From positions 128,001-192,000 of the IMG/VR virus record IMGVR_UViG_3300011980_000002: DNA of 64,000 nucleotides. One strand, 5' to 3'. The notes below the pieces were generated by a model, which was not told the DNA's origin, searched no databases, and worked only from the letters and a program-made list of their open reading frames with translations. Positions 3,760 through 53,424 of the stretch are shown piece by piece (the first letter of the stretch is position 1; each line of letters starts with the position of its first letter). This DNA is from a virus. A program made the translations under genes and the position numbers.

Positions 3760-5160
3760 ATGCTTAAATATTTAAATATGTATAAGAATAAATACAGAGA
3801 CCAATTAAACAAGAAGCTTATGAAAAAAGAAGCTGATGAACCATTGGTTGAGTATATTAAAGATGCGTGGAAATCATTAGAGATAGCTCCTGCTATTAAG
3901 ATAGTTGATTTTAAGTATTCTGAAATAGAGAATGATATCAACATCAATAAGTATATATTCAAGAGAGAGAAGAATAAGAAAAAGAAAGAGAAATTTGATG
4001 TAAAGTTTATTAATGACAGTAGATGTGGTAGTCTTCGTACTACTATAGAAATAACTTTACCTGTTAAAGACCCAGTATCTGGAGAAATCACTATACATAA
4101 GAAAACCTTGAGTAAAGATATTCTTATTCCTATACAAGATGATAGAGGATATTATACTATAAAGGGTAAAAAGTATTATATGATTTATCAATTGGTAGAG
4201 AAATCTACTTATACAGGTAAACAGACTATTACATTGAAATCATTAATGCCTATTGCTATACAAAGAAATAGTACTGTAGTAAAAGGTTTATCTTTTAAAC
4301 ATGAAATGTTAACAGAAGAATTAGAAAAGGATAGTGGAGTAATGACCAAGAATTCCACTATAGCAGAAACTGTTAATGGTGATACTTATAAATTACCAGT
4401 TTATTACATTTACATGTTTAAGAAAGAAACTCCTATATTACCATTCTTTTTAGCAAGAGGAGCAGAATATGCTTTAGACTTTTTACAATTAAATAGAATT
4501 ATCTCATTTGAAGATGGGGAATCATTTCTTAACAGTGAGAAATCTGATAATGAGATATGGTTTGTTATAAGTAATAACAAATGTTATTTAAGAGTAAAAG
4601 ATAGAGAAATCTTTAATAAGTATCAATATTTACAAGCTATGGTAGGAAGTCTATTAGATATAATGAGTAATAGACTTACTAAAGAGCAAATATATGATAC
4701 TACATTATGGGTTAAGAAGTTAGGTGGTGGAAGTCAATCTAATTCTTATAATAAAGGATTGGATATGTTAACTTTCTTCAGTAGACTATTAGATGAGACT
4801 ACTAAGAAGATATTAAGAATAGATGATATTCATAAGAAAGACATTTATTCTTTAATAAGATGGATGATGATGAATTTCAACGAAATACGATTAAAAGACA
4901 ATATGAATTTATATAATAAGAGAATTCGTTGTAATGAGTATATATCATCATTACTTACAATAGAATTCAGTAGGAGACTTAACAGAATAATATCCATGGG
5001 TAATAAAGCTACTATGGATAATTATAAAGAGATATTTAAGTTCCCAGGAGAAATCTTATTACAAAAGTTACATGTATCGGGAGTACTAAGATTTGATGAT
5101 TGTATTAATGATATGAATTTCTTTAGTAAGTTTAAAGTAACTTTCAAAGGACGAATTGAT
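3760..5160 (+). CDS. phage multisubunit RNA polymerase beta-like subunit, N-terminal polypeptide, exon 1
   Basis: RGYYTIKGKKYYMIYQLVEKS resembles the beta motif G-x-F-I-I-N-G-x-E-R-V-I-V-S-Q-L. The C-terminal GVLRFDDCINDMNFFSKFKVTFKGRID aligns to bacterial beta [28 protein letters not shown]. The listed ORF tail 5161-5241 is read-through into the intron. Confidence 0.75.
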
Positions 5161-6131
5161 AAAATGTGGTCCCGAAATATGGTAACATATTGGAAAAACC
5201 GCTTTAACTGCGGGAAAATCTTAATAAACTTTAATTACTAAACTTATATAGTGATATGATAAGTGGCAATGGGTAACTCCAAAGGTATAGTAAAAAGATT
5301 AAAGTTTAAGACAATCCGCAACAAAGATACTTTTATAGAAAAGGATGGTGCATTTTTATAACTATGGAAAATGAAATTATATGGAAAGATATCCTATTAG
5401 ATAGTAAATATTATTACTTTGAAAAGTATGAGTGTAGTAATACAGGTTTAATAAGATATAAAAAGACTAAAAAACTTGTTAAGATATTTGACTCATACAG
5501 ACACAATCGTAAAAATCAACATTGGAAAAGATGCTTTTTATATTTTGACAAGGACCATTTTTATAAAGTGAGTGTACACAGAATAATAGCATTTACATTT
5601 ATACCAAATCAAGATCCAGATATTTATATTGAAGTTAATCATATAGATGGGAATCCTGAAAATAATAATGTTGATAATTTAGAATGGGTTACAAAATCAC
5701 AAAATATGATTCATGCATATAAAAATAACCTAATTAAATTACCAATAGGTGGTAGGCGTAAAGAGGCTATATTTGACGACGATGATGTACGAGCTGTTGT
5801 GTATCTGATGAAACAAGGTATGAAAGCAAAAGAAATATATTTCAATTTATATGAATTAGGATTATCATATAATCCGATTCTAACTAGAGAAAGGATAAAT
5901 TCTCTAATGAAACATATTCGAAAAGGTACACACTGGAAGCATATCTATAAAAAAGTATAATGTTCAACGACTAGGGAAAGACATATTATAATTAATTATA
6001 ATATGAATCGAGTAGGCTCAATAATAGGGCGAAACGTAGATGAAACAAATCGAAACGGGCGGCTCCTTATATTATTAAATATAAGGATGATGATATAGTC
6101 TAAGAAATAGTGAATTGCACATTCACAAGGG
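5161..6131 (+). mobile_element. group I-type intron carrying an HNH homing endonuclease (boundaries approximate, +/- a few nt)
   Basis: Separates two halves of one conserved beta block. A join at T5160/A6132 keeps the frame, leaves exon 1 ending in U and the intron ending in G. The segment is GC-enriched and hairpin-dense: 5176-5191 AATATG-GTAA-CATATT; 5982-6005 perfect 24-nt palindrome; 6065-6086 CCTTATAT/ATATAAGG; 6110-6126 GTGAAT/ATTCAC. Confidence 0.7.
5364..5960 (+). CDS. intron-encoded HNH homing endonuclease (NUMOD4-like N-terminus + HNH_3-type core)
   Basis: WKDI...YYFEKYECSNTGLIRY (NUMOD4-like) and HRIIAFTFIP...IEVNHIDGNPENNNVDNLEWVTKSQNMIHA (H-N-H core). Confidence 0.85.
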   Translation: MENEIIWKDILLDSKYYYFEKYECSNTGLIRYKKTKKLVKIFDSYRHNRKNQHWKRCFLYFDKDHFYKVSVHRIIAFTFIPNQDPDIYIEVNHIDGNPENNNVDNLEWVTKSQNMIHAYKNNLIKLPIGGRRKEAIFDDDDVRAVVYLMKQGMKAKEIYFNLYELGLSYNPILTRERINSLMKHIRKGTHWKHIYKKV

Positions 6132-7263: not shown

Positions 7264-7282
7264 ATATACTATTATTTTGTAC
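7264..7282 (+). promoter_or_regulatory. phage promoter-like core ATATACTATTATTTTGTAC
   Basis: Member of the ATATAMTATTWNNTTGTAA family, 36 nt upstream of the ATG at 7318. Confidence 0.5.
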
Positions 7283-10808: not shown

Positions 10809-12791
10809 ATGAAACTAAATTTAGATTCTTATGAAATGACTCATAAAGATATTAAGTTTAATAATAAATTTATTAATAGGGAACTGTCTTGGTTAGATTT
10901 TAATTATAGGGTACTGGATTGTGTAAACAATCCAAGTATCCCTATTAATGAAAGACTTAATTTTTTAGGTATAACAACTTCTAACCTGGACGAGTTCTTA
11001 TCAGTAAGATTTTCTTATGCTTATTATAACAAAGATAAAGAACCTTATAAAGATATTCTAAAGTCTATATATAAATTCTTAAATAACCAAATCAAATCTT
11101 ATAATAATCTCCAATTAGATTTAAAGAAAGAAGATATTTCTATATCTAAAGTATCTAAGCTAGATAAGAAAGAATTAAAGAAATTAAATAATATTTTCAA
11201 TCTTTCTATCTTCCCGTTATTATCTCCGACAAATATCAAATCTAATAATGATATTCCTAATATGAATAATGGGGATTTATGTGTGGGATGTCTATCTGGA
11301 GATAATGATTTAATCATAATCCCTATACCAAAATCTATAAATTACTTAATTAAAGTAAATAAGAAATATCTACTAATAGAAGATGTAATTCTTTCATTAA
11401 TAGATGATATCTTGATTAATAAGAATATAAAACATAAGTGTGTATTTAGATTAATAAAAGATATGTCATTTACTTTAGACCATGATAATTCTAAATTCAT
11501 TATAGATAGAATGAATGATATAATTTTACAAAGACAATCATCCAAACCTATCTTTTGTGAATTTGAATCTTCTATAGATAGTAATCTTAAAGATTTAATC
11601 ATCGATACATTTGATATTAATAAATCCCATATATTTTACAGTAAACAAATCGTAGATTATAGAAGATTTATGAAAAATAAGTTGTTATCGAGTAACTACT
11701 CGTATAAACCATTTAAATCACATAATCTTAAATTTAACGACTCTAAGTATAGCATTTTCTCTATAATAGATGAAAAGGACATTTTGTTACAACATCCGTA
11801 TGATAGTTATGAATCAGTAGTAAGATTTATCAACCATGCTGCGATTGATAAAGATGTTGTAGCAATTAGACAGACTCTATATAGAGTTTCATCTATAGAT
11901 GGTCCAATAATAAATGGATTATGCAAAGCTGCGAAGAATGGTAAACAAGTTACAGTATTAGTAGAAATAAAAGCTAGATTTGATGAGAAGAATAATATAG
12001 AGATTATAGATAAATTAAAAGAATCAGGATGTAATGTATTATTAGGAAATGAGTATCTTAAAACACATTGTAAGATGTGTTTGGTTATAAGTAAAGATAA
12101 TGATACTTATAAGATATATTCTCATGTGGCTACCGGTAATTATAATGAGAAAACCAGTATGTTATATACAGATATATCATATTTTACAAGTAAACAAAAA
12201 ATAGGTAATGACTTATTGCATATCTTCAATATATTATCTGGAGTATCCAAACCTGATAGTAAATTACAAAAGATATCATATTCTCCAGTTACTTTAAGAA
12301 AAACTATAATAGGTAATATTGATAAATGTATTAAGTTAGCGAAGAAAGATAAAAAGTCTGAGATATTTATTAAAGTTAATTCTATATCTGACAAAATTAT
12401 AGTTAAGAAATTATATGAAGCTGCTGATAGTGGAGTTAATATCTATATCATATGTAGAGGAATATGTTCTATTATCCCTAGGAAAAATCTCTATATAAAA
12501 TCTATAGTAGGTAGATTCTTAGAGCATAGTAGAATATATCATTTTAACTATGATGGAAATAAAGAATATTATATTTCATCAGCAGATTTATTAACTAGAA
12601 ATTTAGATAGAAGAATTGAGATATTATTAAATATCTCTGATAATAAGTGTATTAATAAACTACAAGAGATTATTAAAGTAATGAAGAAAGATGAAGTTAA
12701 TAGTTTCATTATGGATAGTAAAGGTAACTTTAGTAGAGGTAAAGGAAATTATAATTGTCATAACGAATTCATTGGGAATAAGATTAAGTAG
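10809..12791 (+). CDS. ppk: polyphosphate kinase 1 (PPK1)
   Basis: The N-terminal signature FINRELSWLDFNYRVLDCVNNPSIPINERLNFLGITTSNLDEFLSVRF closely matches the PPK1 N-domain. Also LQHPYDSY, QTLYRVS, the histidine segment THCKMCLV and C-terminal RFLEHSRIYHF. 660 aa is PPK1-sized. Confidence 0.9.
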   Translation: MKLNLDSYEMTHKDIKFNNKFINRELSWLDFNYRVLDCVNNPSIPINERLNFLGITTSNLDEFLSVRFSYAYYNKDKEPYKDILKSIYKFLNNQIKSYNNLQLDLKKEDISISKVSKLDKKELKKLNNIFNLSIFPLLSPTNIKSNNDIPNMNNGDLCVGCLSGDNDLIIIPIPKSINYLIKVNKKYLLIEDVILSLIDDILINKNIKHKCVFRLIKDMSFTLDHDNSKFIIDRMNDIILQRQSSKPIFCEFESSIDSNLKDLIIDTFDINKSHIFYSKQIVDYRRFMKNKLLSSNYSYKPFKSHNLKFNDSKYSIFSIIDEKDILLQHPYDSYESVVRFINHAAIDKDVVAIRQTLYRVSSIDGPIINGLCKAAKNGKQVTVLVEIKARFDEKNNIEIIDKLKESGCNVLLGNEYLKTHCKMCLVISKDNDTYKIYSHVATGNYNEKTSMLYTDISYFTSKQKIGNDLLHIFNILSGVSKPDSKLQKISYSPVTLRKTIIGNIDKCIKLAKKDKKSEIFIKVNSISDKIIVKKLYEAADSGVNIYIICRGICSIIPRKNLYIKSIVGRFLEHSRIYHFNYDGNKEYYISSADLLTRNLDRRIEILLNISDNKCINKLQEIIKVMKKDEVNSFIMDSKGNFSRGKGNYNCHNEFIGNKIK

Positions 12792-12794
12792 TTT

Positions 12795-12813
12795 ATATAA
12801 TATTAAATTGTAA
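12795..12813 (+). promoter_or_regulatory. phage promoter-like core ATATAATATTAAATTGTAA
   Basis: Family member, 39 nt upstream of the ATG at 12852. Confidence 0.5.
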
Positions 12814-13312: not shown

Positions 13313-14038
13313 ATGAATATAATAGAAATACAAAAACTATCTCCTGATAATATCAAAACCAGTAAATATTTTAATGCTAAAGTATTAGATTTTCCTATAG
13401 ATAGTGGTAAAGATTTTATCATTCTTACTAGAGAATTGCAACCTGAGTATTATAACAACTTAATGTCTAAAATAGTAGATATTTATAAACTCTGTAGAGA
13501 TGCAAAGGATTTGTATTTCATTACAGAATACGGAGTGCTACTAGATATTAGTACAAGTCATAAGTTTGAATTGCGCAGTAACAAATCTAAGATATATCAT
13601 TTTAGAAGTAGTAGTGAGATTATATTTAATTTTATAAGGTCATTAGGATATTTCTATAAAAAGGTATCTATGGAAATACATGATAGAAATATCGTTGATA
13701 GAGTTGTAACTCATGGACCAACTACTACTGATATAGGATTACATTGCTCATATACATCTAATTATAATAATGATGTTATAGATGGTATAAATTTAAGTTA
13801 TAAGAATTTTTCAGATGCAATATATAAGTTTGTACCAGATATAAGTATGATAAATAGTGATTTATACTATTATATTATAAAGAGTAATTACTACGGTTGT
13901 GAGATAGTAAGTCTTAGTGATATAATATCTAGCGACTGTGGTACATGTAAATACATTAAAGGTTGCCACATAAAGAATATAATAAATTACTTTGAGATGG
14001 GTTCTGATAATCCTAAGGTAATTTCCTCTTTAGAATAA
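13313..14038 (+). CDS. hypothetical protein
   Basis: 241-codon ORF. Confidence 0.6.
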   Translation: MNIIEIQKLSPDNIKTSKYFNAKVLDFPIDSGKDFIILTRELQPEYYNNLMSKIVDIYKLCRDAKDLYFITEYGVLLDISTSHKFELRSNKSKIYHFRSSSEIIFNFIRSLGYFYKKVSMEIHDRNIVDRVVTHGPTTTDIGLHCSYTSNYNNDVIDGINLSYKNFSDAIYKFVPDISMINSDLYYYIIKSNYYGCEIVSLSDIISSDCGTCKYIKGCHIKNIINYFEMGSDNPKVISSLE

Positions 14039-14079
14039 AGAATTTAATTTAAGAAAGGATAAACAAAACTACAGGTGAT

Positions 14080-15522
14080 ATGAAAAGAATAATTTCAGTA
14101 TATCATACTCATATAGAAATTTATCCATATGAATTAGGAGACTTTAGACGAATAGAAACTTTCTATTCAGAATTTGATATAGTATTTCATAAGTATAATC
14201 CAATAGCTTATTACTATGAGGATAATACTCTATATTTACCAAGAGGTACAAGTTTAACTTATTTGCAAAAGAATTTACCTGAGTCTGAAATAGTAATTAA
14301 GAAAGATACAGATGACAAAGAGTATATTAAGATAAATCCGTTAATTGGATATAAATCAGATATACAAAAAGAAGCAGTAGAATTTCTATCATCCGAGGGT
14401 AGATTTACTAAAGGATTATCATATTCTCAATTTGCATTAAACTTGGATACTGGTGATGGTAAAACTATTGCAATGATATTAGCAATAGCTCAAAGATATA
14501 AAACAAGAGCTATGATAATAATGAACCAATCGGATTTAAAGAAACAGTGGAAACGAGAATTTATTAAAGCTACGGATATAGATGAGAATAGGATATTAGA
14601 TATATCAGGTTCTGATACTATAGTTAAATTAATGGATAGTAATGAAATAGATTATGATATCTTTTTAATCAATCATCAGACTTTATCATCATTTGGTAAA
14701 AGATATGGTTGGAAAGAGTTATCCAATTTCTTTAAAAAGATTAAAATTGGAGTTAAAGTATACGATGAAGCTCATAAGTTCTTTACTAATATATCAATGA
14801 TAGATTTCTTTACTAACACAGAAAAGACTTTTTACTTAACTGCTACATTTAAGCGTAGTGGAGCAAGAGAGTCTACGATGTTTAAGAAAGCATTTAGTAA
14901 TTGCTATAGGTTTGGTGAAGAGACTCTTAATTATGAGAGTAAAAGAAAACATACAGACTATTTCTATATTCAGTTTAATAGTAATTGCCCAGTATTAACA
15001 CAATCAAGATTATATGGAAGATTTTCTGTGTCCCCATTCAATTATATTAAGTATCAATTATTTTGGGATGAAAGAAAAACCTTTTATAATGTCTTAAAGA
15101 AAGTAATTAAGCTAATAGAGAATTTAGAGGGTAAGATATTAATAATATCTCCTACGATAGAATCTACTGAAGTAATTGGTAAATTTATATCTGATAATTT
15201 TGATAAGAGAGTAGTAATTATGAATTCTAAAATTAATGAAGAAGTCGATTTTAGTAATTATGATGTAATAAGTGCTACGATGAAATTATTAGGTACTGCT
15301 ATAGATATAAAAGGATTAAGAGTATTAATTAATACCGAACCATTTAAATCTGAAGTTAACTTAAGACAATTAAAAGGTAGATTGAGGGAATATAATAGTA
15401 CTGATATGACATACATGTTTGATTTAGTAGATGTTTCTATAAGAGATGTATCTAGTATGGGACAAAGTAGACTTAATAATATGAAGAAATATGCTAATGA
15501 AATTAAGATAATTAATGTATAA
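14080..15522 (+). CDS. superfamily 2 DEAD/DEAH-box helicase
   Basis: Motif I LDTGDGKTIAM, motif II VYDEAHKF (DEAH), motif III YLTATFKR, motif VI QLKGRLRE. Confidence 0.8.
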   Translation: MKRIISVYHTHIEIYPYELGDFRRIETFYSEFDIVFHKYNPIAYYYEDNTLYLPRGTSLTYLQKNLPESEIVIKKDTDDKEYIKINPLIGYKSDIQKEAVEFLSSEGRFTKGLSYSQFALNLDTGDGKTIAMILAIAQRYKTRAMIIMNQSDLKKQWKREFIKATDIDENRILDISGSDTIVKLMDSNEIDYDIFLINHQTLSSFGKRYGWKELSNFFKKIKIGVKVYDEAHKFFTNISMIDFFTNTEKTFYLTATFKRSGARESTMFKKAFSNCYRFGEETLNYESKRKHTDYFYIQFNSNCPVLTQSRLYGRFSVSPFNYIKYQLFWDERKTFYNVLKKVIKLIENLEGKILIISPTIESTEVIGKFISDNFDKRVVIMNSKINEEVDFSNYDVISATMKLLGTAIDIKGLRVLINTEPFKSEVNLRQLKGRLREYNSTDMTYMFDLVDVSIRDVSSMGQSRLNNMKKYANEIKIINV

Positions 15523-15574
15523 CAAAATTATAAGCAATTAAAAAAATATTAAGATATATAGGAGATTACAGATA

Positions 15575-16156
15575 ATGAAGTATAATCATAAACTTTATGT
15601 AATTACTGCTCAGCCAGAAGTAGGTAACCTCGATAAACTCGCAGATAATATTATACAGCACTTCTTAGATCCGAATGCTGAATATACAAAACCGGAAACG
15701 GATTTCAGAGTTCATCAGTATAATAATGAACTCGTTCCACTATTCAATGGTGAAGGTGGTGAAAAGGTTGTTGATGCTATTAAGTATAGTCTCGATAATG
15801 GCGAAGGAAGTGTACTTTATGTTGCTAAGTCTGTAGACCAGTATAAGAAGCTTGTTGAAGTATTTGGTGAAGATAGGGTTGTTAACATAGTAGTTGAAGC
15901 ATCACTTGTTGATAGATTTAAGAGCTATGTAGATACTATTGATTACTCTGATGATGAGAGTTGTCTTAAGTGCCTTAAGCACTTCATAAACAGTAATAGC
16001 AAGTATGCTAAGCATCAGGCTTCCAGAGGATACAAGAATGCTGTTAATGAAGGAAGAGTATTCAAGTATAGATCAGATGAGAAGGCTGCTTCATCTTTAG
16101 TAGACGAGGTGTCTAACTTCATACTTAAAAAGGGTGGATTTTACGAAGCTAAGTAA
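15575..16156 (+). CDS. hypothetical protein (G/C-ending codon class)
   Basis: 193-codon ORF with AGGAGA RBS. Visibly more CTC/AAG/CAG codons than its neighbours. Confidence 0.7.
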   Translation: MKYNHKLYVITAQPEVGNLDKLADNIIQHFLDPNAEYTKPETDFRVHQYNNELVPLFNGEGGEKVVDAIKYSLDNGEGSVLYVAKSVDQYKKLVEVFGEDRVVNIVVEASLVDRFKSYVDTIDYSDDESCLKCLKHFINSNSKYAKHQASRGYKNAVNEGRVFKYRSDEKAASSLVDEVSNFILKKGGFYEAK

Positions 16157-16188
16157 ATTACTTTTATAATTGCTTTAATATTATAAAT

Positions 16189-16229
16189 AATATACCATAT
16201 GGGTTCTATTCCCATATGGTATATTATTT
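16189..16229 (+). terminator. Rho-independent terminator
   Basis: AATATACCATATGGG-TTCTATT-CCCATATGGTATATT 15-bp stem followed by a T-run. Confidence 0.85.
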
Positions 16230-16288
16230 TCCGTATTTCATATATATATATACCGATATACTATTTATGTGTAATAAAATAAATATAT
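16230..16288 (+). promoter_or_regulatory. extended (class A) phage promoter, copy 1
   Basis: TCCGTATT - (TA)n - ATATACTATTTATGTGTAA - TAAAATAAATATAT. Near-identical architecture at 18191, 40168 and 53373. Confidence 0.6.
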
Positions 16289-16305
16289 AAAGGAGATTAT
16301 TAATT

Positions 16306-16536
16306 ATGAGCATATATGAGGCATATAAATATACAATAACTAAACTAATCAATGAAGGAAGAATTGATGCAGTTAAAAATTTACTTTCAGGGTGGAAAGA
16401 GCTCAATGAAAGTAAATTAAAAAGACTCAGAGGAACACACAGTGCTCCAGAGAGTCAAGAAATGCTACAAAAGAAATCTATAGTACCATTAGAAGTCCTC
16501 GCGGTTGTTGAGGAATTCAAAGAATATATAATATAA
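16306..16536 (+). CDS. small hypothetical protein (76 aa)
   Basis: AAAGGAG RBS 9 nt upstream. First gene of the class A cassette. Confidence 0.65.
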   Translation: MSIYEAYKYTITKLINEGRIDAVKNLLSGWKELNESKLKRLRGTHSAPESQEMLQKKSIVPLEVLAVVEEFKEYII

Positions 16537-16551
16537 AAAAGGAGAAAAAAT

Positions 16552-16728
16552 ATGTTTAGGAAAGTTGCTACAATGGAAGATGTGGAAATGGAATTAGAAA
16601 AGGTTTCCGATGAAATGGATAACATCTTTAAGAAGGCTGAGGAAGACCTTCTCAATAGTCTTAATATAAAGACTAAAGAGAAGACCTTTAGTAAAGGCTT
16701 CTTCAACTTCAATAAAAATAAAGCCTGA
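16552..16728 (+). CDS. small hypothetical protein (58 aa), not in the supplied ORF track
   Basis: ATG at 16552 preceded by AAAAAGGAGAAAAAATATG. Translates to MFRKVATMEDVEMELEKVSDEMDNIFKKAEEDLLNSLNIKTKEKTFSKGFFNFNKNKA. The stop overlaps the terminator stem. The listed antisense ORF 16455-16712 is rejected. Confidence 0.6.
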   Translation: MFRKVATMEDVEMELEKVSDEMDNIFKKAEEDLLNSLNIKTKEKTFSKGFFNFNKNKA

Positions 16729-16753
16729 TAATCTCAGGCTTTATTTTTTTTTT
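16718..16753 (+). terminator. Rho-independent terminator
   Basis: ATAAAGCCTGA-TAATC-TCAGGCTTTAT followed by T10. Confidence 0.9.
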
Positions 16754-16772
16754 CTATTTATAAGCATTATCT

Positions 16773-16791
16773 ATATAATATTATTTTGTAA
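16773..16791 (+). promoter_or_regulatory. phage promoter-like core ATATAATATTATTTTGTAA
   Basis: Family member, 34 nt upstream of the ATG at 16825. Shares the ATTATCTATATAAT upstream context with the 35994 copy. Confidence 0.55.
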
Positions 16792-16824
16792 TTAAATTTA
16801 TAATGGAAAGAAGGAGAAAGAAAT

Positions 16825-17613
16825 ATGAAATTACTAAAGAAACTATTTAAACACCATAATAGAAATATTACAGATATTTCTGAGTTAAAAGACTTTTATC
16901 TTGCTAGTAATATTTCCAAATTAGTATTAGTTAAGAATAATAAAGATTACAATTTAGGTCTTTATATTCCTTTTACTAAACTTAATGAAATTCATGAAAG
17001 TTTGGAAATGGTAACCAAATTAGTATCTATTTACAATGATCCTGTATTTGATATAGAACCTTTGTATCTTTATATTGTAATAATAAAAGAACCAGGTTCT
17101 ATAGAGTCATTATTTAAAATCTTTATATCTAATAAATATGATATTGAAAATAATCATAGTGATAATGATATCATATTAAGAATAAAGATTAAGAATGATA
17201 ATAAGGATAATATTGTTAATGTATTAAGTTTAATGAGGGATGGTTATAAAAGCTGTATTAATACATTACATAATTCAGTTGTATACAATGTGGATATTAA
17301 CTCAGCTTATGTTAAATTACAATTAGCAGAGAATGAAATTACCATAAGTAAACTAACCTTATCTAATATGATGAAGAATAGTTTATATTATGACATATTG
17401 GAAATAATGAATAATGATATGTTTGTGATAGAAGGAGTAAATGAAGAAGTTCCAGGTATCTATAAGATACAGCATTGCCCATCTGAATTAGATGAAAATA
17501 GTGTGATTATAGACGGTATATTATTAAAACAAATAATACATGGCGATGCTATGAATATCTTAGATAAAGTGATATTGAAAGATGACTTAAGAGTTAAGAA
17601 AGACGGAGAATAA
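16825..17613 (+). CDS. hypothetical protein
   Basis: 262-codon ORF with conserved leader AAGGAGAAAGAAATATG. Confidence 0.7.
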   Translation: MKLLKKLFKHHNRNITDISELKDFYLASNISKLVLVKNNKDYNLGLYIPFTKLNEIHESLEMVTKLVSIYNDPVFDIEPLYLYIVIIKEPGSIESLFKIFISNKYDIENNHSDNDIILRIKIKNDNKDNIVNVLSLMRDGYKSCINTLHNSVVYNVDINSAYVKLQLAENEITISKLTLSNMMKNSLYYDILEIMNNDMFVIEGVNEEVPGIYKIQHCPSELDENSVIIDGILLKQIIHGDAMNILDKVILKDDLRVKKDGE

Positions 17614-17618
17614 GAAAT

Positions 17619-18140
17619 ATGAAAACTAATATTAGTAATATAATAACTATAGAAAGAATATCTAACCCATACATAACAAAAGAAGGTATAATACTATATC
17701 TTTATAAAACTATAGGTACTATACATGGTAATTATTCAATAATGATGAGAAGATTAAAGGATAATGAATCTAATGAAGTGCTTATTAGAAGTCTTTATTT
17801 AACTGGAAAGTTATTTGGAGTAAGTGACGAGAGATACATATTAAAGAAATTTAATATTGCTGATGATATTGATATATCTAAAATAGATGTCATTAAACAG
17901 GATTTTGATGTATGCCCAAAATACCTATTCCTACATTGTAAAGATAATTCTGATGGTAATAGGGAATTAACTGCTGTAAGAATGAGTAATGATGGATATT
18001 TAATAGATAAGGATTTATATGATCCTAAAGAGAGAATATTTAGATTATCAATGAATATTGTCAATTATCAAAAATATAAAAAGACAATAAGTGATATGTT
18101 AAATAAAGTACTTTTAGAAACTTGGCACAAAAATAATTAA
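17619..18140 (+). CDS. hypothetical protein
   Basis: 173-codon ORF with leader GGAGAATAAGAAATATG. Confidence 0.7.
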   Translation: MKTNISNIITIERISNPYITKEGIILYLYKTIGTIHGNYSIMMRRLKDNESNEVLIRSLYLTGKLFGVSDERYILKKFNIADDIDISKIDVIKQDFDVCPKYLFLHCKDNSDGNRELTAVRMSNDGYLIDKDLYDPKERIFRLSMNIVNYQKYKKTISDMLNKVLLETWHKNN

Positions 18141-18150
18141 ATGAATTATT

Positions 18151-18189
18151 AATAAGAGTATGGTTGTATCATACTCTTATTTTTTTTTT
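18151..18189 (+). terminator. Rho-independent terminator
   Basis: AATAAGAGTATG-GTTGTAT-CATACTCTTATT followed by T10. Confidence 0.9.
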
Positions 18190-18190
18190 A

Positions 18191-18252
18191 TCCGTAATAT
18201 GTATATCCATATATATATATATACTATTTATTTGTAAGATAAAAAAATATAT
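18191..18252 (+). promoter_or_regulatory. extended (class A) phage promoter, copy 2
   Basis: TCCGTAAT - (TA)n - ATATACTATTTATTTGTAA - GATAAAAAAATATAT. Confidence 0.6.
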
Positions 18253-18303
18253 TGCCTATATATAGGTAGGGTGGAGATAATATCAAGAGCCCAAGGAGTT
18301 AAA

Positions 18304-19008
18304 ATGAAATACACATCAATCAGTTCTGTAATTGCTAAGCTAACTAATGGTATAGAGATTAAGCTTTTAGATGGTCATACATTAGGCGGTACTAAAGTTG
18401 TAGCCTGTGTTGACCCATCTAATAATGAGCATAATAAAGAACTCTTAAAGAACTTGAGTAGAGCCGCTCATATCTGTGAGTCTGGCTCTACTCCAAAATA
18501 TATGTTTGTTATAACGCAGTACGATAATGGGTGCAAGCTCATAGATATTATGTTTACAGATAATCTATTGGATATAAATAATATATATGAAACAAACCCA
18601 AATTGCCATGGTTCTTTGGTTGAGACTAATAACCAAAGAACTTATAGTGGTATGATGGAAACTATCGTAAAGCTTCGTGATATGTATAGTGAAGCTTTAC
18701 AGGAATTAAATTCTACTGGAAACGAATTAAAGTCATTCAGATATAATGGCGAAATGCTAGTATTGAGAAGGAATGACGATAAGATGTTTTCAGTAGATAC
18801 GGGATCATTACTCAGACAAGGAACTTTATCAGTTCGTATGAAGTTCAAGTACTCTGAGTATAATAAGAGGAAGTTCCTCTTAATGAAAACGAGCCCACAA
18901 CGAGTTTCATTGGAAGAAGTCAACCCAAATGGAACAGTAATCAATGGTGATGGTGTCACCATTACCATGTTACAACTGGATGAACTTCTGGATGTAATAA
19001 GACCATAA
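18304..19008 (+). CDS. hypothetical protein (G/C-ending codon class)
   Basis: The ATG at 18304 has AAGGAG 6 nt upstream. The GTG at 18271 used by the ORF track lacks a properly spaced RBS. Confidence 0.7.
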   Translation: MKYTSISSVIAKLTNGIEIKLLDGHTLGGTKVVACVDPSNNEHNKELLKNLSRAAHICESGSTPKYMFVITQYDNGCKLIDIMFTDNLLDINNIYETNPNCHGSLVETNNQRTYSGMMETIVKLRDMYSEALQELNSTGNELKSFRYNGEMLVLRRNDDKMFSVDTGSLLRQGTLSVRMKFKYSEYNKRKFLLMKTSPQRVSLEEVNPNGTVINGDGVTITMLQLDELLDVIRP

Positions 19009-19056
19009 AAAATAAAACCCACTTACATAAATTACAATAAGTGGGTTTTATTTTTT
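19007..19056. terminator. bidirectional terminator between convergent genes
   Basis: AAAACCCACTTA ... TAAGTGGGTTTT stem flanked by an A-run upstream and a T-run downstream. Confidence 0.85.
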
Positions 19057-20008
19057 AGAATTTATTCATATATAATATCTCATTATATATTATATTTTTT
19101 ACCATCACATCATCAGATATTATTCCGATAAACTGTAATAGCTTTACTGATAGATTTAAACTTTCGTTTATATTCACATCTTGGAAATAAGTATAGCTAT
19201 TTGGAGCAATTAATAAATAAGCATCTATTATAAATGGTCTATTATTATCTTCCCAATGTTTGATTATTATAGACCCTAATATCTCAAGAGATTTCCTAAG
19301 CTCTTTATAGCTCATCTCATCTATAAATTTAATTTCTTTAATCCCCGAGTATTTACCCGTGCATATAATATAAATTAATCTCATTATCTCATTTACACTA
19401 ATTACACTACTTGGTCTATATTCTTTTAACTCATCACTTATCTTATTAAATATCTTATAAATCTTATTAGGGATATTCTTAGTAATAAATGATGATTTAT
19501 CATATAACCAAATATACTTTAATAAATCCATTAATTCATTATAATAACTTCCATATATACTCATATTACTATTGATATACTTGTCAATAAATCCATTTAA
19601 TGAATGATAGATATCGGTAATATTGCTATTAATAGATTTATGGTTGTCTATACAGGTAAGTATATTCTCGATATTATTTAGCATATAGCCAAGTATTAAA
19701 GAACAAAATTTTCTTTTAAAGATATCTTCATATATATTATAAATATCATTATGCTTATAGTCTAAAACCATATCTATTAACTTATCTTTATCTAATGAAT
19801 AAATATCATCAAATATATAACTATCACCATCTTTATGTAATTTACTATACTTAGATAAGTTATAATAATTATCCAATAATACCATAATCTTACAATGACA
19901 ATATAATTTGAATCTTGATATAGACTCATTATCATTTCCCATAATAGATTTCTTATGGAAAAAATCATCTATACTACTCATTATTTTTTTAATCTTCTTT
20001 CTTTTCAT
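19055..20008 (-). CDS. hypothetical protein
   Basis: On the minus strand the ATG at 20008 (MKRKKIKK...) is preceded by the conserved leader GAAGGAGAAAAAAGAAATATG. The longer start at 20044 in the ORF track has no RBS. Confidence 0.65.
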   Translation of the reverse strand: MKRKKIKKIMSSIDDFFHKKSIMGNDNESISRFKLYCHCKIMVLLDNYYNLSKYSKLHKDGDSYIFDDIYSLDKDKLIDMVLDYKHNDIYNIYEDIFKRKFCSLILGYMLNNIENILTCIDNHKSINSNITDIYHSLNGFIDKYINSNMSIYGSYYNELMDLLKYIWLYDKSSFITKNIPNKIYKIFNKISDELKEYRPSSVISVNEIMRLIYIICTGKYSGIKEIKFIDEMSYKELRKSLEILGSIIIKHWEDNNRPFIIDAYLLIAPNSYTYFQDVNINESLNLSVKLLQFIGIISDDVMVKNIIYNEILYMNKF

Positions 20009-20037
20009 ATTTCTTTTTTCTCCTTCAATAATCATTA

Positions 20038-20057
20038 CTACCATATTAATATTATAT
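20038..20057 (-). promoter_or_regulatory. variant promoter-like core on the minus strand (ATATAATATTAATATGGTAG)
   Basis: Reverse complement of 20038-20057, 30 nt upstream of the minus-strand ATG at 20008. Confidence 0.35.
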
Positions 20058-20124
20058 ATACAATGATTTTATATATTATTAATATGAATTATATTTATAA
20101 TAATGGAAAGGAACATAAAGAAAT

Positions 20125-20895
20125 ATGAGTATTATTGATATTATAAGGGTATATGATTATGTAGAAAAGAAGGACTGTATGAAAATAAAAGTTAAATCGT
20201 TAGAAACTTCAAAGATTAATATATTGGTAATAAGAATACCGGTTAATTATAAAGAAACCGGATTAGTTAATATTAATATCGTAGAAAATATATTAAATCC
20301 AATTTATACTGATTATGATACTATTGACGATATGTATAATTCATTGAAGAATACGGATAACAGTTATTTTGATTTCTTACCGAAATATTTATATTTATAT
20401 CATGATAGTGAGAAAGAAATAATCAAAGATATAAGATTATCTAATAAAGAAACCTATACATATACTGATGTTAATGATACAATATATCGTATCCATCTTC
20501 TTAAAGAAAATATAAGTGAGATATGTGAAGTTATATCTTCTATATATGATACATATCAAAATGCTATCACCTATCAATTATATAAATCCGAAGTTAAATC
20601 AGTTTATATAAGTGATATAGACGATGCTACAAGAATTACTATAGATGATGGTAATAAACCAGCCCACTTAACTCCTAATATGGTAAAAGGGATGTTTAAA
20701 AGATATGGTGTTGGTACCTTAGATAAGGATGCTCTATATATGATAAAAAGTATATATGGTAAATCTCTTCATTTAAGAAAATTGGATTATCTTCCAATTA
20801 ATACATTGAATAGAGATAAAATCGTTACATATTTTATTTTAGAGTCGATGTATGAATTAATGAATACGTTAACTAAGGACGACTTTTTATGGTAG
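20125..20895 (+). CDS. hypothetical protein
   Basis: 256-codon ORF with GGAAAGGAA RBS. Confidence 0.7.
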   Translation: MSIIDIIRVYDYVEKKDCMKIKVKSLETSKINILVIRIPVNYKETGLVNINIVENILNPIYTDYDTIDDMYNSLKNTDNSYFDFLPKYLYLYHDSEKEIIKDIRLSNKETYTYTDVNDTIYRIHLLKENISEICEVISSIYDTYQNAITYQLYKSEVKSVYISDIDDATRITIDDGNKPAHLTPNMVKGMFKRYGVGTLDKDALYMIKSIYGKSLHLRKLDYLPINTLNRDKIVTYFILESMYELMNTLTKDDFLW

Positions 20896-20965
20896 TTAAA
20901 AAACCTTGTAAAAACATTGAAGTAAACTAAATAAAATTAAATAAGAAAGGTGGTATATTGTAATT

Positions 20966-33940: not shown

Positions 33941-35554
33941 ATGAGTAGTAAAAAAATGAAACCACCAATAGTTTTGTGGAAACCTAAGGAAGAAGAGAAG
34001 ATAATTACATATGATGGTAAAATCTTTATATGTAATTTTGATAAGGTATTATCTCCGGAATTAGTACCTTATAGAAATTTTATGATTAATAAATCCAGTT
34101 ATGAAAAACAACTGGACCAGATAGTAGCTTATATTAATTTCTTCTTAAATTTTTATGATAAAGAACATGAATTAATATTAGGGTATCTTAAGTTAAAATT
34201 TGTTATAGATAAAGAAAGATTATTCCAAGTTGACCCTAGTATGGATAATGAAGAGAAGAATAAAACCATAAATGGATTTATATCATTAATGCATAATATA
34301 CTATTTGAAGATACTTCTGTAGCTAAGAATATTAGTAAATTAGTAGAAGATAATTACATTGATGATATAGAAGGTACTAATAGTAAAGGGGATAAGAAAG
34401 AATATTTAGAGTCATTAGAATTTACCAATGCTCATGTTATGTTAATACTTAAAGTATCGTTTGCAATGAAAATAATAGCCCCAATTATGTTCCATTATTT
34501 TTATATAAATGGAATTAAGTTGGAGAAGAATTCAGATTATATCTATAGATTTTATAAACCATTATTTGGAGATATATTTGAAACACATGGAATTAATCTA
34601 TTTAATAAATTATTTGTGTATGTGAAATCAAGAGTATTTGAATCCGGTAAGATTAATGCTGCAATATTTGATAAGAGAGAGATTATGGGTATTGATATAT
34701 ACTTAGTGCTTAGTATGTTTATTAAGAAAGTCGTAATCTCTGATAATATGGTTAAATATTCATTTCCAGAAACTTGGGATGAGAAAAATCATAAGTATAA
34801 AGAGAATATTGTAGGATTTAATAAGACTATACTTAAATTACAACTTAATTATTTCATTAAAGAAGTACATGGTAAAAATTTAACCGAAGTATCTAATACT
34901 AAGAATACTGAAGGTTTATCAGGTGCTGATAAGATGGAAATGAATATTAAGAAGATGGATGAAGGTATGGGATTATTTGCAGAATTAAATGCAGAGAAAA
35001 CCGTAGAATATATTAAGAGAGTTATAGATATTCCTGTAAGTAAATATGAAGTAGACTATATGATGGATCACTTTAAACCTAATGACATACAGATTAAATT
35101 AATCTATAGCTATTATAGTAATTACTTTGGTAATTATAGAGATACTGCATTAGTTACAGGAAGAAATTTCTATACATTAGCATTATTACTTAAGAAGAAA
35201 TTGTTATTAGATTTTGCTCATGATATAAACAAAGATAATTACAACCTGACCTTACCATATGTACTGACAGGTAATGTTGAAGGTAGGTTAAATTCAAGAA
35301 TAATAAGAAATAATAAATACTTAAGTAAATTAGAAAATGATGACTATTATCAGAAATTACTCAATAATGAATATAAATTATTATTAGAGATAAATCCTGA
35401 TGAAATTAAGAATATCATTAGTACAATGCTTAATTTACAATTCTCATATGTTACTCCAGAGAATCCAGATTTATTAGGAGAAATAATAGAGACAGATGAA
35501 AATAAATTAGGTGCAGAATTATTATACTTTTTATTTCATATGGAAAGGAACTAA
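33941..35554 (+). CDS. hypothetical protein
   Basis: 537-codon ORF with GGAAAGGAA RBS. Confidence 0.7.
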   Translation: MSSKKMKPPIVLWKPKEEEKIITYDGKIFICNFDKVLSPELVPYRNFMINKSSYEKQLDQIVAYINFFLNFYDKEHELILGYLKLKFVIDKERLFQVDPSMDNEEKNKTINGFISLMHNILFEDTSVAKNISKLVEDNYIDDIEGTNSKGDKKEYLESLEFTNAHVMLILKVSFAMKIIAPIMFHYFYINGIKLEKNSDYIYRFYKPLFGDIFETHGINLFNKLFVYVKSRVFESGKINAAIFDKREIMGIDIYLVLSMFIKKVVISDNMVKYSFPETWDEKNHKYKENIVGFNKTILKLQLNYFIKEVHGKNLTEVSNTKNTEGLSGADKMEMNIKKMDEGMGLFAELNAEKTVEYIKRVIDIPVSKYEVDYMMDHFKPNDIQIKLIYSYYSNYFGNYRDTALVTGRNFYTLALLLKKKLLLDFAHDINKDNYNLTLPYVLTGNVEGRLNSRIIRNNKYLSKLENDDYYQKLLNNEYKLLLEINPDEIKNIISTMLNLQFSYVTPENPDLLGEIIETDENKLGAELLYFLFHMERN

Positions 35555-35919: not shown

Positions 35920-35935
35920 ATAAAATCTCATTAAT

Positions 35936-35977
35936 ATAACCTATATACGGATTATCGTATATAGGTTATATTTTTTA
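35936..35977 (+). terminator. Rho-independent terminator
   Basis: ATAACCTATATACG-GATTAT-CGTATATAGGTTAT followed by T6. Confidence 0.85.
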
Positions 35978-35993: not shown

Positions 35994-36012
35994 ATATAAT
36001 ATTAATTTGTAA
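35994..36012 (+). promoter_or_regulatory. phage promoter-like core ATATAATATTAATTTGTAA
   Basis: Family member, 34 nt upstream of the ATG at 36046. Confidence 0.55.
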
Positions 36013-36045: not shown

Positions 36046-36666
36046 ATGAAAAAATTTAATTATGGTTTTGAAGATTTTTCATTCAGTGAGGACAAAGCCA
36101 ATCATCAATCAGAAATAGAATTATTGATTAAAAAGCTTCGTGGGTTTAAATATGTTACAGCATATTTAAACGTTGGTATTAATATGTTATATAGAATAAC
36201 GATACTTGAGGGATATTTGCTAAGATTTCTAATTTTTACAGATAAAGGTGATTTTTACGATAGTATACAATATGCAATAAAAATGTGTAGAGATATAGCT
36301 GAATTACTCGTTAATAATTCAAACGTGTATACCTATCATGGTTTTTATAATAAGAATAAGAGAATAAGCGATATTCTCTTTGAGAAAGTAGAACTTATTG
36401 ATAGAAAAACCATTACAGAAGCACAATCAATATTAGATATAGATGATAGGGATATGAGAGATTTTATCAATAGATTTCAATCGAGAGCTTTCATCTATAT
36501 AGAGAGAATTGATGAGGGTAAACATATTATAGTACTATTGGATTCATTTTATTCATATATGTATTTAATTGAAAATATGGATAAGAAAGAAATTAACAAT
36601 AGTTCATTTTCATTAGAAACAGCCAATTCAATATCAGTAGAAAATGAGGATGAGAATGACGATTAA
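36046..36666 (+). CDS. tandem paralog family member 1 (about 210 aa, acidic SIS..ED.NDD tail)
   Basis: Clear similarity to the next gene: YHGFYNKNKRISDILFEKV vs YYEFYKTHKKISDLLIENC, and C-termini ANSISVENEDENDD vs PNSISIQDEEGNDD. Confidence 0.7.
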   Translation: MKKFNYGFEDFSFSEDKANHQSEIELLIKKLRGFKYVTAYLNVGINMLYRITILEGYLLRFLIFTDKGDFYDSIQYAIKMCRDIAELLVNNSNVYTYHGFYNKNKRISDILFEKVELIDRKTITEAQSILDIDDRDMRDFINRFQSRAFIYIERIDEGKHIIVLLDSFYSYMYLIENMDKKEINNSSFSLETANSISVENEDENDD

Positions 36667-40116: not shown

Positions 40117-40120
40117 ATAA

Positions 40121-40162
40121 GATAATAGAGTATATAGAAATCAATCTATATACTCTATTATC
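40121..40162 (+). terminator. stem-loop terminator
   Basis: 17-bp stem GATAATAGAGTATATAG / CTATATACTCTATTATC. Weak T-tract. Confidence 0.65.
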
Positions 40163-40167
40163 TATGG

Positions 40168-40226
40168 TCCGTATTTCATATATATATATAGTAATATACT
40201 ATTTATATGTAATAAAATAAATATAT
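40168..40226 (+). promoter_or_regulatory. extended (class A) phage promoter, copy 3
   Basis: TCCGTATT - (TA)n - ATATACTATTTATATGTAA - TAAAATAAATATAT. Almost identical to copy 1. Confidence 0.6.
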
Positions 40227-40242: not shown

Positions 40243-40488
40243 ATGATGTCATTAGCAGAGTTAAATAGAATAACCAGTAAGTTTGATTTAGAGGCTTGTA
40301 TGGCTATAGCCTCTGGAAGAAAAGAAACTATTGATTCTATCAAGGAAGAAATCAATACTCAACTTATATCATTTAATAACATGAAATCTGAAGCTGTTGA
40401 AGCTACAGATATTCACAACTTAGAATCTGCAATTTATAAATTGCAGATTACATTAAAGGATATAGAAGGCTTTGGAATGTTATTCTAA
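40243..40488 (+). CDS. small hypothetical protein (81 aa)
   Basis: AAAGGAG RBS 8 nt upstream. Single gene of a class A cassette. Confidence 0.65.
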   Translation: MMSLAELNRITSKFDLEACMAIASGRKETIDSIKEEINTQLISFNNMKSEAVEATDIHNLESAIYKLQITLKDIEGFGMLF

Positions 40489-40515
40489 GCCTTCTATATA
40501 TATATTAATAAAAAT

Positions 40516-40548
40516 AAATCTTAATTAATTTTAGGATTTATTTTTTTT
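40516..40548. terminator. weak AT-rich bidirectional stem-loop between convergent genes
   Basis: AAATAAATC ... GATTTATTT stem followed by T8. Confidence 0.4.
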
Positions 40549-43351: not shown

Positions 43352-43409
43352 TTAATTTAGCCTGATTACTCCTTTCTAATTTTCTATTAAAAATCTATCT
43401 AAAGGTTAA

Positions 43410-43451
43410 GTCAATGTTTTTAGCCCTAAAAACCCTATGAAAAACATTGAC
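43410..43451. promoter_or_regulatory. 12-bp perfect inverted repeat carrying back-to-back TTGAC boxes in a divergent intergenic region
   Basis: GTCAATGTTTTT-N18-AAAAACATTGAC. The minus strand reads TTGACT-N17-TTTAAT ahead of the beta-prime gene. The plus strand reads TTGACC-N17-AAAAAT ahead of 43497. Confidence 0.4.
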
Positions 43452-43496
43452 CTAAATTAAAACTAAGATAAAAATATTATACAGAAAGGATTTATT

Positions 43497-46681: not shown

Positions 46682-46819
46682 CAGTTTTGTTTATGTCCTT
46701 TCCATTTATATTTTTTCTAATATATGAGATTTATATATTTGTGTTCTGATATAACTAATAGTAATTAATTGATATTAGCACAAAATAATAAAATCTATAT
46801 ATAGAAAGGAACTAAGATA

Positions 46820-48627: not shown

Positions 48628-48646
48628 ATATACTATTAACTTGTAA
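48628..48646 (+). promoter_or_regulatory. phage promoter-like core ATATACTATTAACTTGTAA
   Basis: Family member, 40 nt upstream of the ATG at 48686. Confidence 0.5.
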
Positions 48647-48685: not shown

Positions 48686-49003
48686 ATGAGTAAGGATTTT
48701 AATTTATCCTATGTATCACCAATAAAGGAAGAAGTTGATAATGATAAATCTAAAGTAAAAATTAAGAAAAAAGATTCTTATTATAGTTATGATAAGATGG
48801 AGAAAGATGCAGATTGTATAGAGGAGTATCTTAATATCTTAGAGAGATTTGCTATTATAACAAATCTTACTCCAGAGAAATATAAAAAGGCTATGAAAAA
48901 ATCTAGGAAACTTGTTAAGTTGCTTAGAGAAGGGAAAGGAGAAAAAGTCTATGATAAAGATAGATATGATGAATATATGGCTAGGGTAGAAAATCATGAG
49001 TAA
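48686..49003 (+). CDS. hypothetical protein
   Basis: 105-codon ORF with leader AAAGGAGAAAAAGAAATATG. Confidence 0.7.
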   Translation: MSKDFNLSYVSPIKEEVDNDKSKVKIKKKDSYYSYDKMEKDADCIEEYLNILERFAIITNLTPEKYKKAMKKSRKLVKLLREGKGEKVYDKDRYDEYMARVENHE

Positions 49004-49475: not shown

Positions 49476-49522
49476 GATATTAACATAATAAAATTTATAC
49501 ACAGGAAAGGAAGATAAGAATT

Positions 49523-50080: not shown

Positions 50081-50112
50081 ATATTAAATTTATGAAAGGA
50101 TAGTTAGTTATA

Positions 50113-52173: not shown

Positions 52174-52175
52174 CT

Positions 52176-52700: not shown

Positions 52701-52728
52701 AGATATTACAAGAAAGGAAATAAGAACT

Positions 52729-53307: not shown

Positions 53308-53329
53308 TTTTAGCTTTTACAAAATTAAG

Positions 53330-53371
53330 AATAATAGATACTAGATTAATTTCTAGTATCTATTATTTTTT
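53330..53371 (+). terminator. Rho-independent terminator
   Basis: 15-bp stem AATAATAGATACTAG / CTAGTATCTATTATT followed by a T-run. Confidence 0.85.
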
Positions 53372-53372
53372 A

Positions 53373-53424
53373 TCCGTAATTTCTCTTAATATATATATAC
53401 TATTTACTTGTAAAATAAATATAT
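53373..53424 (+). promoter_or_regulatory. extended (class A) phage promoter, copy 4
   Basis: TCCGTAAT - N - (TA)n - ATATACTATTTACTTGTAA - AATAAATATAT. Confidence 0.6.

Follow-up and report, generated by a model that had tools for sequence, protein, structure and literature searches.

The window analysed here is a 64-kb stretch of viral DNA, positions 128,001 to 192,000 of IMG/VR record IMGVR_UViG_3300011980_000002, and our subject is a set of four small-gene cassettes within it, each headed by the same extended promoter-like element and flanked by hairpins. The window has 26% G+C, is nearly all coding, and is read mostly from the + strand. The phage is uncultured with a genome of ~223 kb, its close kin are metagenome contigs of 210-221 kb, related genomes of 210-223 kb number roughly 14 (among them ENA ERZ28634329, ERZ27279310, ERZ21659590, and ODJA01000004), and a nucleotide search of GenBank phages with window positions 14000-20000 gave no match. 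An earlier note on this DNA had described four shared elements, each with a TCCGTAWT box, a (TA)n run, ATATACTATTTAYNTGTAA, an A/T-rich leader, and a strong ribosome-binding site (RBS), and we find them at the positions it gave; its gene coordinates and lengths are also correct (76 + 58, 234 plus a stop codon, 81, and 62 amino acids [aa]). The features of the cassettes are listed below, in window positions, where class A denotes the extended form of the promoter and dN/dS is the ratio of nonsynonymous to synonymous divergence.

16185-16229, + strand: hairpin upstream of cassette 1, 19-bp perfect stem; predicted terminator of the preceding operon, outside the cassette.
16230-16274, + strand: class A promoter of cassette 1, with box TCCGTATT at 16230-16237, a TA run, and core ATATACTATTTATGTGTAA at 16256-16274; predicted start at ~16274.
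16306-16536, + strand: open reading frame (ORF) c1a, 76 aa.
16552-16728, + strand: c1b, 58 aa; 77-84% identity in relatives, dN/dS 0.08-0.13.
16711-16757, + strand: cassette 1's own predicted terminator, hairpin plus T10; near-identical to the terminator of a C1-like module at locus L011.
18151-18190, + strand: upstream predicted terminator of cassette 2, hairpin plus T-run; compensatory stem changes in relatives.
18191-18237, + strand: class A promoter of cassette 2, box at 18191-18198, core at 18219-18237.
18254-18298, + strand: structured 5′ leader of cassette 2, with hairpin 1 at 18254-18267, hairpin 2 at 18269-18292, and RBS AAGGAG at 18293-18298.
18304-19008, + strand: c2, 234 aa; limited to this phage group, dN/dS 0.16-0.19.
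19006-19057, + strand: downstream predicted terminator of cassette 2, 20-bp perfect stem; common to the convergent gene at 19055-20044 (− strand).
40120-40163, + strand: upstream hairpin of cassette 3, 19-bp stem, no U-tract; ATGG follows.
40168-40212, + strand: class A promoter of cassette 3, box at 40168-40175, core at 40194-40212.
40243-40488, + strand: c3, 81 aa, acidic; predicted three-helix bundle (predicted local distance difference test score [pLDDT] 92.6), dN/dS 0.18.
40507-40550, + strand: downstream predicted terminator of cassette 3, AT-rich stem plus T8; abuts the end of the virion beta′ gene.
53324-53372, + strand: upstream predicted terminator of cassette 4, hairpin plus T-run, from folding.
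53373-53413, + strand: class A promoter of cassette 4, box at 53373-53380, core at 53395-53413.
53447-53635, + strand: c4, 62 aa, acidic; dN/dS 0.14-0.17.
53634-53689, + strand: downstream predicted terminator of cassette 4, 24-nt arms; common to the convergent endolysin gene.

The eight flanking hairpins have stems of 14-21 bp and folding energies of -13 to -25 kcal/mol, and they account for 8 of the ~12 hairpins of such quality in the 64 kb. The earlier note had strong terminators around every cassette. All eight hairpins are real, and in seven a G+C-containing stem-loop runs directly into a U-tract, as expected of an intrinsic (Rho-independent) terminator; the exception is the upstream hairpin of cassette 3, where the U-tract is missing. 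The picture of insulated mono- or bicistronic units with terminators of their own, headed by promoter-like elements, is borne out. A common architecture through the RBS holds for cassettes 1, 3, and 4; in cassette 2 it breaks off after the core, where a 67-nt structured leader and the RBS CCAAGGAG follow.

The 19-nt pattern ATATACTATTTAYNTGTAA has four exact matches in the window, at 16256, 18219, 40194, and 53395, all on the + strand. When up to three mismatches are allowed, there are 11 matches, compared with 2.8 +/- 1.6 in shuffled sequence, and none of 100 shuffles reaches 11. The TCCGTAWT box sits 24-30 nt 5′ of ATACTATT in all four copies, and the four elements can be aligned from the upstream hairpin through the start codon. 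A looser search for the core ATATA[AC]TATT[AT]NNT[TG]GTAA finds nine intergenic copies on the + strand, 30-66 nt 5′ of start codons, and 9-mers of this core are the most recurrent words of the upstream regions, RBS words aside. Thus, the four extended copies of the earlier note stand, but five copies of a shorter version escaped it, and the element is not a stand-alone one but the extended form of what appears to be the phage's general early-type promoter, with nine copies in the window. The five shorter copies, which we call class B, are as follows.

7264-7282, + strand: class B-type core without a box, from the pattern search.
12795-12813, + strand: class B core, from the pattern search.
16773-16791, + strand: class B core ATATAATATTATTTTGTAA of the next operon, directly 3′ of cassette 1, from the pattern search.
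35994-36012, + strand: class B core, preceded by a hairpin at 35933-35972; both are conserved in relatives.
48628-48646, + strand: core heading the operon with the non-virion beta′ gene (50113-52173), from the pattern search.

The two classes differ in anatomy and in the genes that follow them. The four class A copies have the box TCCGTAWT, the TA run, a TATTTAY variant, and the leader AAAATAAATATAT, and their cores differ systematically from those of class B, with C at core position 6 and the TATTTAY. The class B copies mostly read TATAATATTAWWTTGTAA. Class A lies before small accessory genes, whereas class B heads multigene operons of replication and polymerase genes; the copy at 48628, for example, heads the tightly packed genes of 48686-53307, the non-virion beta′ gene among them.

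Both parts of the class A element recur in related phages. A scan of JGI metagenomes gave 16 further class A copies, 13 of which precede a complete ORF of 50-132 aa, with a strong hairpin 3′ of 11 of these 13; of the other three copies, two have ORFs that are cut off by the contig end and one lacks a convincing ORF. The box, or TTCGTA / TCTGTA in its place, is present 22-30 nt upstream of all 21 class A cores (9 loci, at least two phage lineages), and the distance from box to core is even in all 21, which is expected if the TA repeat changes by slippage. The box is absent from the class B cores examined, and an orthologous copy, L110, combines a class B-like core with the box. Core and box are essentially unchanged while the cargo genes have reached a synonymous divergence of 0.3-1.2. 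More distant relatives (27-32% GC, ~45-65% polymerase identity) retain the core TATAATATTTNTTTGTAA, with a box-like GTATTTC and a long TA run in at least one. A class B pattern scan of viral contigs gave mostly chance matches, including L002 and L003, which are chance matches in 36% GC phages.

The genes of the window indicate what kind of phage this is. It encodes an NAD-dependent DNA ligase, a polyphosphate kinase, a chaperonin-like protein, a helicase, a primase, a ThyX-type thymidylate synthase, and an endolysin, together with a divergent family B DNA polymerase (PF20286) of the type typical of AR9/phiKZ-type phages. The polymerase gene that matters most here is the following.

40547-43351, − strand: homologue of the virion RNA polymerase beta′ subunit, 934 aa, the proposed reader of the promoters.

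This 934-aa protein aligns over its full length with a Fusobacterium JD-Fnp phage protein at 28% identity, and the best AR9 match to its C-terminal half is annotated as a virion RNA polymerase subunit. The + strand gene at 50113-52173 has its best matches in proteins of Staphylococcus and Bacillus jumbo phages annotated as non-virion beta′ ("non-viral RNA polymerase beta-prime"), and two further polymerase-like genes lie at 3760-5241 and 33941-35554. From this gene content, the phage is, as judged by homology, an AR9/phiKZ-type jumbo phage with both a virion and a non-virion multisubunit RNA polymerase.

By the published rule, every jumbo phage with these polymerases has an extended, conserved, AT-rich motif before its early operons, which is read by the injected virion enzyme. 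The early promoter of AR9 is AAATATATATTAT-N6-G(+1) (PMC5312081, PMC7598289), and one annotated AR9 early promoter reads TATATTATAATTGTA; in phiKZ and 201phi2-1, early promoters show conservation at -10, -20, and -30 and lie before hypothetical genes (PMC11512511). The window motif shares with the AR9 early promoter ATATTA(T) and its distance from a conserved start region. Like the early promoters of AR9, phiKZ, 201phi2-1, and phiR1-37, it is an AT-rich, conserved, extended motif over-represented 5′ of operons, in a phage encoding virion and non-virion beta/beta′ homologues, and most of the genes behind it are small and hypothetical, with a non-virion polymerase gene as well. It differs from them in its sequence, ATATA[AC]TATT..TGTAA, and in its two subclasses, one with a box joined through a length-variable (TA)n. 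The virion beta′ also differs from that of AR9 in being a single 934-aa protein rather than a split one, as it is in the Fusobacterium JD-Fnp phages.

A second motif marks a different set of genes. The late-type motif AACA-N6-T[AG] (extended form AAAAACATTGAnnTAA) lies 53-67 nt 5′ of five genes, namely the virion beta′ gene, a giant ORF, and three more, and relatives conserve it as well. Its form is identical to the AR9 late consensus AACA-N6-TA, which likewise precedes virion-type genes. The sites are as follows.

20913-20924, + strand: late-type motif.
43407-43418, − strand: late-type motif.
43443-43454, + strand: late-type motif.
46734-46745, − strand: late-type motif.
54637-54648, + strand: late-type motif.

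The late motif of AR9 is read by the non-virion polymerase on uracil-containing DNA. Since the early-type and late-type motifs precede different gene sets, the genes are divided as the AR9 model predicts. Given the uracil-DNA context of the AR9 motif, the ThyX-like gene bears on the base content of the DNA of this phage. We also considered AAAAYATTGACY as a -35-like part of a host promoter and rejected it, as it is not enriched and has the wrong spacing to any -10; its AACA-N6-TA core fits the AR9 late consensus.

From these comparisons, we think it probable that the four elements are an extended early-type promoter of an AR9/phiKZ-like phage, most likely read by the virion polymerase and heading accessory modules akin to morons and to the promoter-early stem-loops (PeSLs) of T4-type phages. 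Dependence on a phage polymerase, for which the earlier note had only suggested a test, is thus the reading that we prefer. The virion multisubunit polymerase, entering the cell with the DNA, would initiate at the class A elements, and the cassettes would be expressed early and at high levels. The core ATATA[C/A]TATT would act as an AT-rich -10-like element, the conserved TAYNTGTAA would cover the start region, and alignment to AAATATATATTAT-N6-G suggests a start at or near the last A of TGTAA. The class A box would then lie ~40-46 nt before the start, as an upstream promoter element or the site of a factor, with (TA)n joining it to the core and its length drifting 2 bases at a time. The predicted transcript would have an A/T-rich leader (31-34 nt from the predicted start, except for the 67-nt structured leader of cassette 2) and a strong RBS, would encode one or two small proteins, and would end at its own hairpin terminator.

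Several points weigh against this account. The start site, the timing, and the polymerase are taken by analogy from phages of only ~30-37% polymerase identity, and raised G+C at third codon positions (GC3) is only a weak proxy for expression. The box-core distance varies by 8 bp, which would be odd for direct contact by a polymerase. No copy of the motif can be recognised at the DNA polymerase operon (25608 onward), which leaves the two-class scheme incomplete, and some non-virion polymerase genes of 201phi2-1 lack early promoters (PMC11512511), which weakens the argument from the operon with the non-virion beta′ gene. Finally, the core holds a perfect sigma-A -10 hexamer, TATAAT in class B and TATACT in class A, so use by the host polymerase is conceivable. 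The elements would then be strong early promoters for the host sigma-A enzyme, like those of T4-type PeSLs, with the hexamer as -10 and (TA)n as a UP-like element. This would suit a host that is probably a low-GC Gram-positive, as the choline-binding repeats of the endolysin and the strong RBSs suggest, and T4-type PeSLs are just such composite units (PMC2839356). However, neither a TTGACA-like -35 at a distance of 16-18 nt nor a TG extension is present, the box is found 15-21 nt from the hexamer at a variable spacing and does not look like a -35, and the strongest conservation (TATT..TGTAA) is 3′ of the hexamer, in a region that sigma-A does not read. These observations weaken the sigma-A alternative, and the phage has a virion polymerase that needs promoters of its own, so that we regard reading by sigma-A as unlikely. 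A simple sigma-70 scan shows no excess (172 sites vs 166 expected) and is uninformative in DNA this AT-rich.

Another way to read the two classes is as two times of expression, with class A a separate middle or delayed-early class whose box binds a phage-encoded activator, repressor, or specificity factor, much as a MotA box does in T4, and class B the immediate-early promoter. The presence of the box at 21/21 class A cores and its absence from the class B cores examined, the systematic core differences, and the split between small accessory genes and replication and polymerase operons would all follow from such a scheme. We doubt it, as the 22-30 nt range of spacing speaks against a rigid geometry between activator and polymerase, no candidate factor was identified, and the L110 copy pairs a class B-like core with a box. 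We consider it very improbable that the repeat is mainly a recombination or mobility element at cassette borders with little or no promoter activity. The left edge of the cassette 4 insertion does coincide with the box, cassette content differs between relatives, and four of five other assemblies break inside the repeat, but any repeat or (TA)n run can be expected to break contigs. Moreover, no copy departs from the fixed orientation and distance to an RBS and ATG, conserved, non-mobile operons have this core at their head as well, and there is no associated recombinase. A reading in which box, (TA)n, and core together serve both as promoter and as the site at which AR9-like jumbo phages exchange gene cassettes, with the box as left border and early host-directed genes without assigned function as the goods traded, is one to which we give little weight. 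If it were true, the repeated promoter and terminator units would recombine with one another through PeSL-like mini-circles or a dedicated enzyme, genes would arrive pre-wired to the injected polymerase, and, with the box, an upstream specificity element would be known for a virion multisubunit polymerase for the first time.

The accessory nature of the cassettes, the other half of the reading that we prefer, comes from comparison with relatives. Our main comparison genome was a 210-kb relative (IMG/VR 3300008575_000010 = ODJA01000004), which is syntenic with the window from 2309 to ~60000 and whose proteins are ~50-97% identical to those of the window, mostly 70-95%. Genes c1a, c1b, c3, and c4 have no match in its syntenic DNA. 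At the cassette 4 site, only the upstream hairpin is left, and the junctions fall within two T-runs (TTTTTT|ATCCGTAA ... TTTTTT|TATTTAAC), which makes the box the start of the cassette-specific sequence. The cassette 3 site has kept its hairpin, and 3′ of it come degenerate traces of both the box and the second terminator. Where cassette 1 would be, the upstream hairpin persists without the cassette and, together with a box-like ACCGTATTTT, is fused to a class B-like promoter directly 5′ of the next gene. The c2 gene has an orthologue there (62% identity), which follows its upstream gene directly, without terminator or promoter, and that upstream gene encodes ~100 additional C-terminal residues.

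The same relative has a C1-like module (L011) at a non-syntenic place, in which a near-identical class A promoter is followed by a c1b-like gene of 47 aa, a terminator that is again near-identical, and a class B promoter. It also has several further class A cassettes with unrelated cargo. The closer relatives, in which c2 is 82-87% identical, retain all four cassettes. In four close relatives, c1a is absent and c1b is kept, so cassette 1 is monocistronic there. Gene c1a was found in five other assemblies, each time with c1b alongside, and four of these (L129, L130, L132, L133) end 46 nt 5′ of c1a, inside the class A promoter/TA run, which is consistent with the repeat breaking assemblies. Two class A cassettes also occur as a tandem pair (L120) with the repeated terminator in common. 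A search for relatives with a 262-aa protein as query found none.

Taken together with the promoter analysis, these differences show a module that extends from box to terminator, sits just after the terminator of a conserved operon, and is present, absent, or relocated from one related phage to the next. Homology for exchange by homologous recombination would probably come from the promoter and terminator repeats.

This behaviour is known from other phages. The morons of lambdoid phages and prophages, reportedly described by Juhala and colleagues and by Hendrix and colleagues in 2000, have their own promoter and terminator, lie between two genes that are adjacent in a relative, and have a somewhat different base composition. 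The cassettes likewise have a promoter and terminator of their own between genes that adjoin in a related phage, but they differ in that this is a lytic-type jumbo phage, to which prophage expression does not apply, and one phage-specific promoter heads them all. PeSLs of T4-type phages (Arbiol et al. 2010, PMC2839356; Comeau et al. 2014, PMC4122927) are likewise composite terminator/promoter repeats around small genes without assigned function, with indels between close relatives delimited by the repeats, with tandem arrays, and with units that adjoin conserved core genes. In contrast to PeSLs, the window promoter is not sigma-70-like, the stem-loop lies 5′ of the promoter without overlap, and the cassettes are scattered among core operons and not gathered in hyperplastic regions. 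As there is no match to a sigma-70 -35/-10, the elements work like PeSLs but are not members of that family. We conclude that the cassettes behave as morons do and are closer still to the T4-type PeSL cassettes.

The cargo genes themselves appear to be real, since their dN/dS of 0.08-0.19 at a synonymous divergence of 0.3-1.2 indicates purifying selection. In line with the earlier note, which saw no recognisable motif in them, the products belong to no recognisable family: the cassette proteins have no significant Pfam or PHROG match, and c1a, c3, and c4 have no tblastn match in GenBank phages. A profile search with c2 against 1.84 billion representatives found no relatives outside the group, one repeat protein excepted; residues 85-145 of c2 match a unit repeated ~25 times in the 6,824-aa protein P0146 (E = 2.6e-9). 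Structure prediction and Foldseek, which the note had asked for, gave no specific relative of c2 or c3: the AlphaFold model of c2 has a pLDDT of 59 and no Foldseek match at E <= 0.001, and the three-helix bundle of c3 found generic bundle matches only.

A role in host takeover or anti-defence, which the earlier note had suggested, is a guess. Among 19 class A cargo proteins examined, about half are small and acidic (isoelectric point 4.3-5.1), others are basic, and one is a membrane peptide; nothing specific was found. Because the cargo is not uniformly acidic, DNA mimicry is unsupported as a rule for it. The note had also proposed very strong expression, for which the support is a modestly raised GC3. 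The five cassette genes have GC3 values of 0.23, 0.42, 0.32, 0.26, and 0.27 (pooled ~0.30, compared with 0.20 +/- 0.05 for other genes), so that more G/C-ending codons hold as a trend, in which c1a is not distinct. Their overall GC is 0.30-0.35, against 0.26 GC and 0.20 GC3 for the window, and several non-cassette genes are equally GC-rich.

The leader of cassette 2 contains an RNA structure of wider distribution. Its second hairpin is GGGU-GGA-GAU-AAU-AUC-AAGA-GCCC, and the general form of the motif is a variable, covarying hairpin followed by N-GGU-GGA-GAU-NNN-AUC-AAGA-GCC-N′ just 5′ of the RBS. It lies before at least five different genes in the 210-kb relative and also occurs in ~30 further AT-rich large phage contigs (34-282 kb, mostly >88 kb), always directly 5′ of an RBS and ATG. 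In a comparison of 26 distinct copies, which precede many different genes, 15 positions never vary and the closing pair shows covariation (GC 10, CG 7, AU 2, UA 2). Sites elsewhere are as follows.

L004, 3860-3920 and 5870-5925: leader motif.
L006, 11290-11346: leader motif.
L119, L123, L128, and L254-L300: leader motif.

Scans of the window for tRNAs and against Rfam gave nothing at the gathering level, and 18225-18320 matched Rfam only at chance level. A blastn search of GenBank phages with the motif returned chance partial matches only, and a scan of bacterial genomes returned chance matches in unrelated, mostly GC-rich genomes. We also considered a kink-turn for the GGA/AAGA internal loop, which could not be established. 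On the basis of its conservation and covariation, the motif is a candidate new cis-regulatory RNA family, for example a translational operator or a nuclease site. Elsewhere in the 210-kb relative (L001 1015-1245, the same as L118 ~6120), a class A promoter is followed by ~130 nt with a long near-perfect hairpin and a terminator (minimum free energy -60.6 kcal/mol, z = -10) and with a 22-codon ORF only, none convincing; this stretch is a possible small RNA cassette.

Other parts of the window also vary among relatives. The gene at 36046-36666 lies between a conserved class B promoter and the usual first gene of its operon, is absent in every relative examined, and encodes a weak paralogue (24% identity) of the usual first gene. 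With c1a as a second example, promoter-proximal positions may be hot spots for gene gain. The genes at 13313-14038 and 5364-5960 lack a match only in the 210-kb relative, and closer relatives have a 241-244-aa gene at the 13313-14038 position. At a site matching window 20044-20125, the relative ERZ28634329 has an inserted IS605 OrfB/TnpB (Cas12f-like) gene (L107 12003-13244), which takes the place of the orthologue of the next gene (20125-20895). The PPK1 gene at 10809-12791 encodes a full-length phage polyphosphate kinase with all four Pfam domains that is 97% identical in the 210-kb relative and is one of the two best-conserved proteins of the region. The endolysin orthologues of relatives have glucosaminidase and choline-binding domains. 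The giant ORF at 54697-64000 (+ strand) encodes at least 3,101 aa and runs past the window end, with 3,957-3,966 aa in relatives; it has glycine-rich, membrane-like repeats, a GC3 of 0.41, twice the genome average, and a VgrG3-like C-terminal Pfam match in one relative. Its product is probably a virion or ejection protein.

The arrangement described here is already known in kind; what is new is the lineage, the architecture of box plus core, the catalogue of cassettes, and the leader RNA motif. So far, promoters of virion multisubunit polymerases have been mapped in only a few cultured jumbo phages, and here comparative data alone suffice to define a two-part promoter (box and core) for an uncultured gut-type lineage, together with a catalogue of >20 small, putatively early cassettes and a clear split between early-type and late-type motifs. 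The catalogue is a candidate list for host-takeover or anti-defence genes, and the defined promoter fragments would help to study in vitro how a virion polymerase without a sigma factor locates its promoters. PeSL-like modular shuffling evidently extends beyond T4-type phages with sigma-70 promoters.

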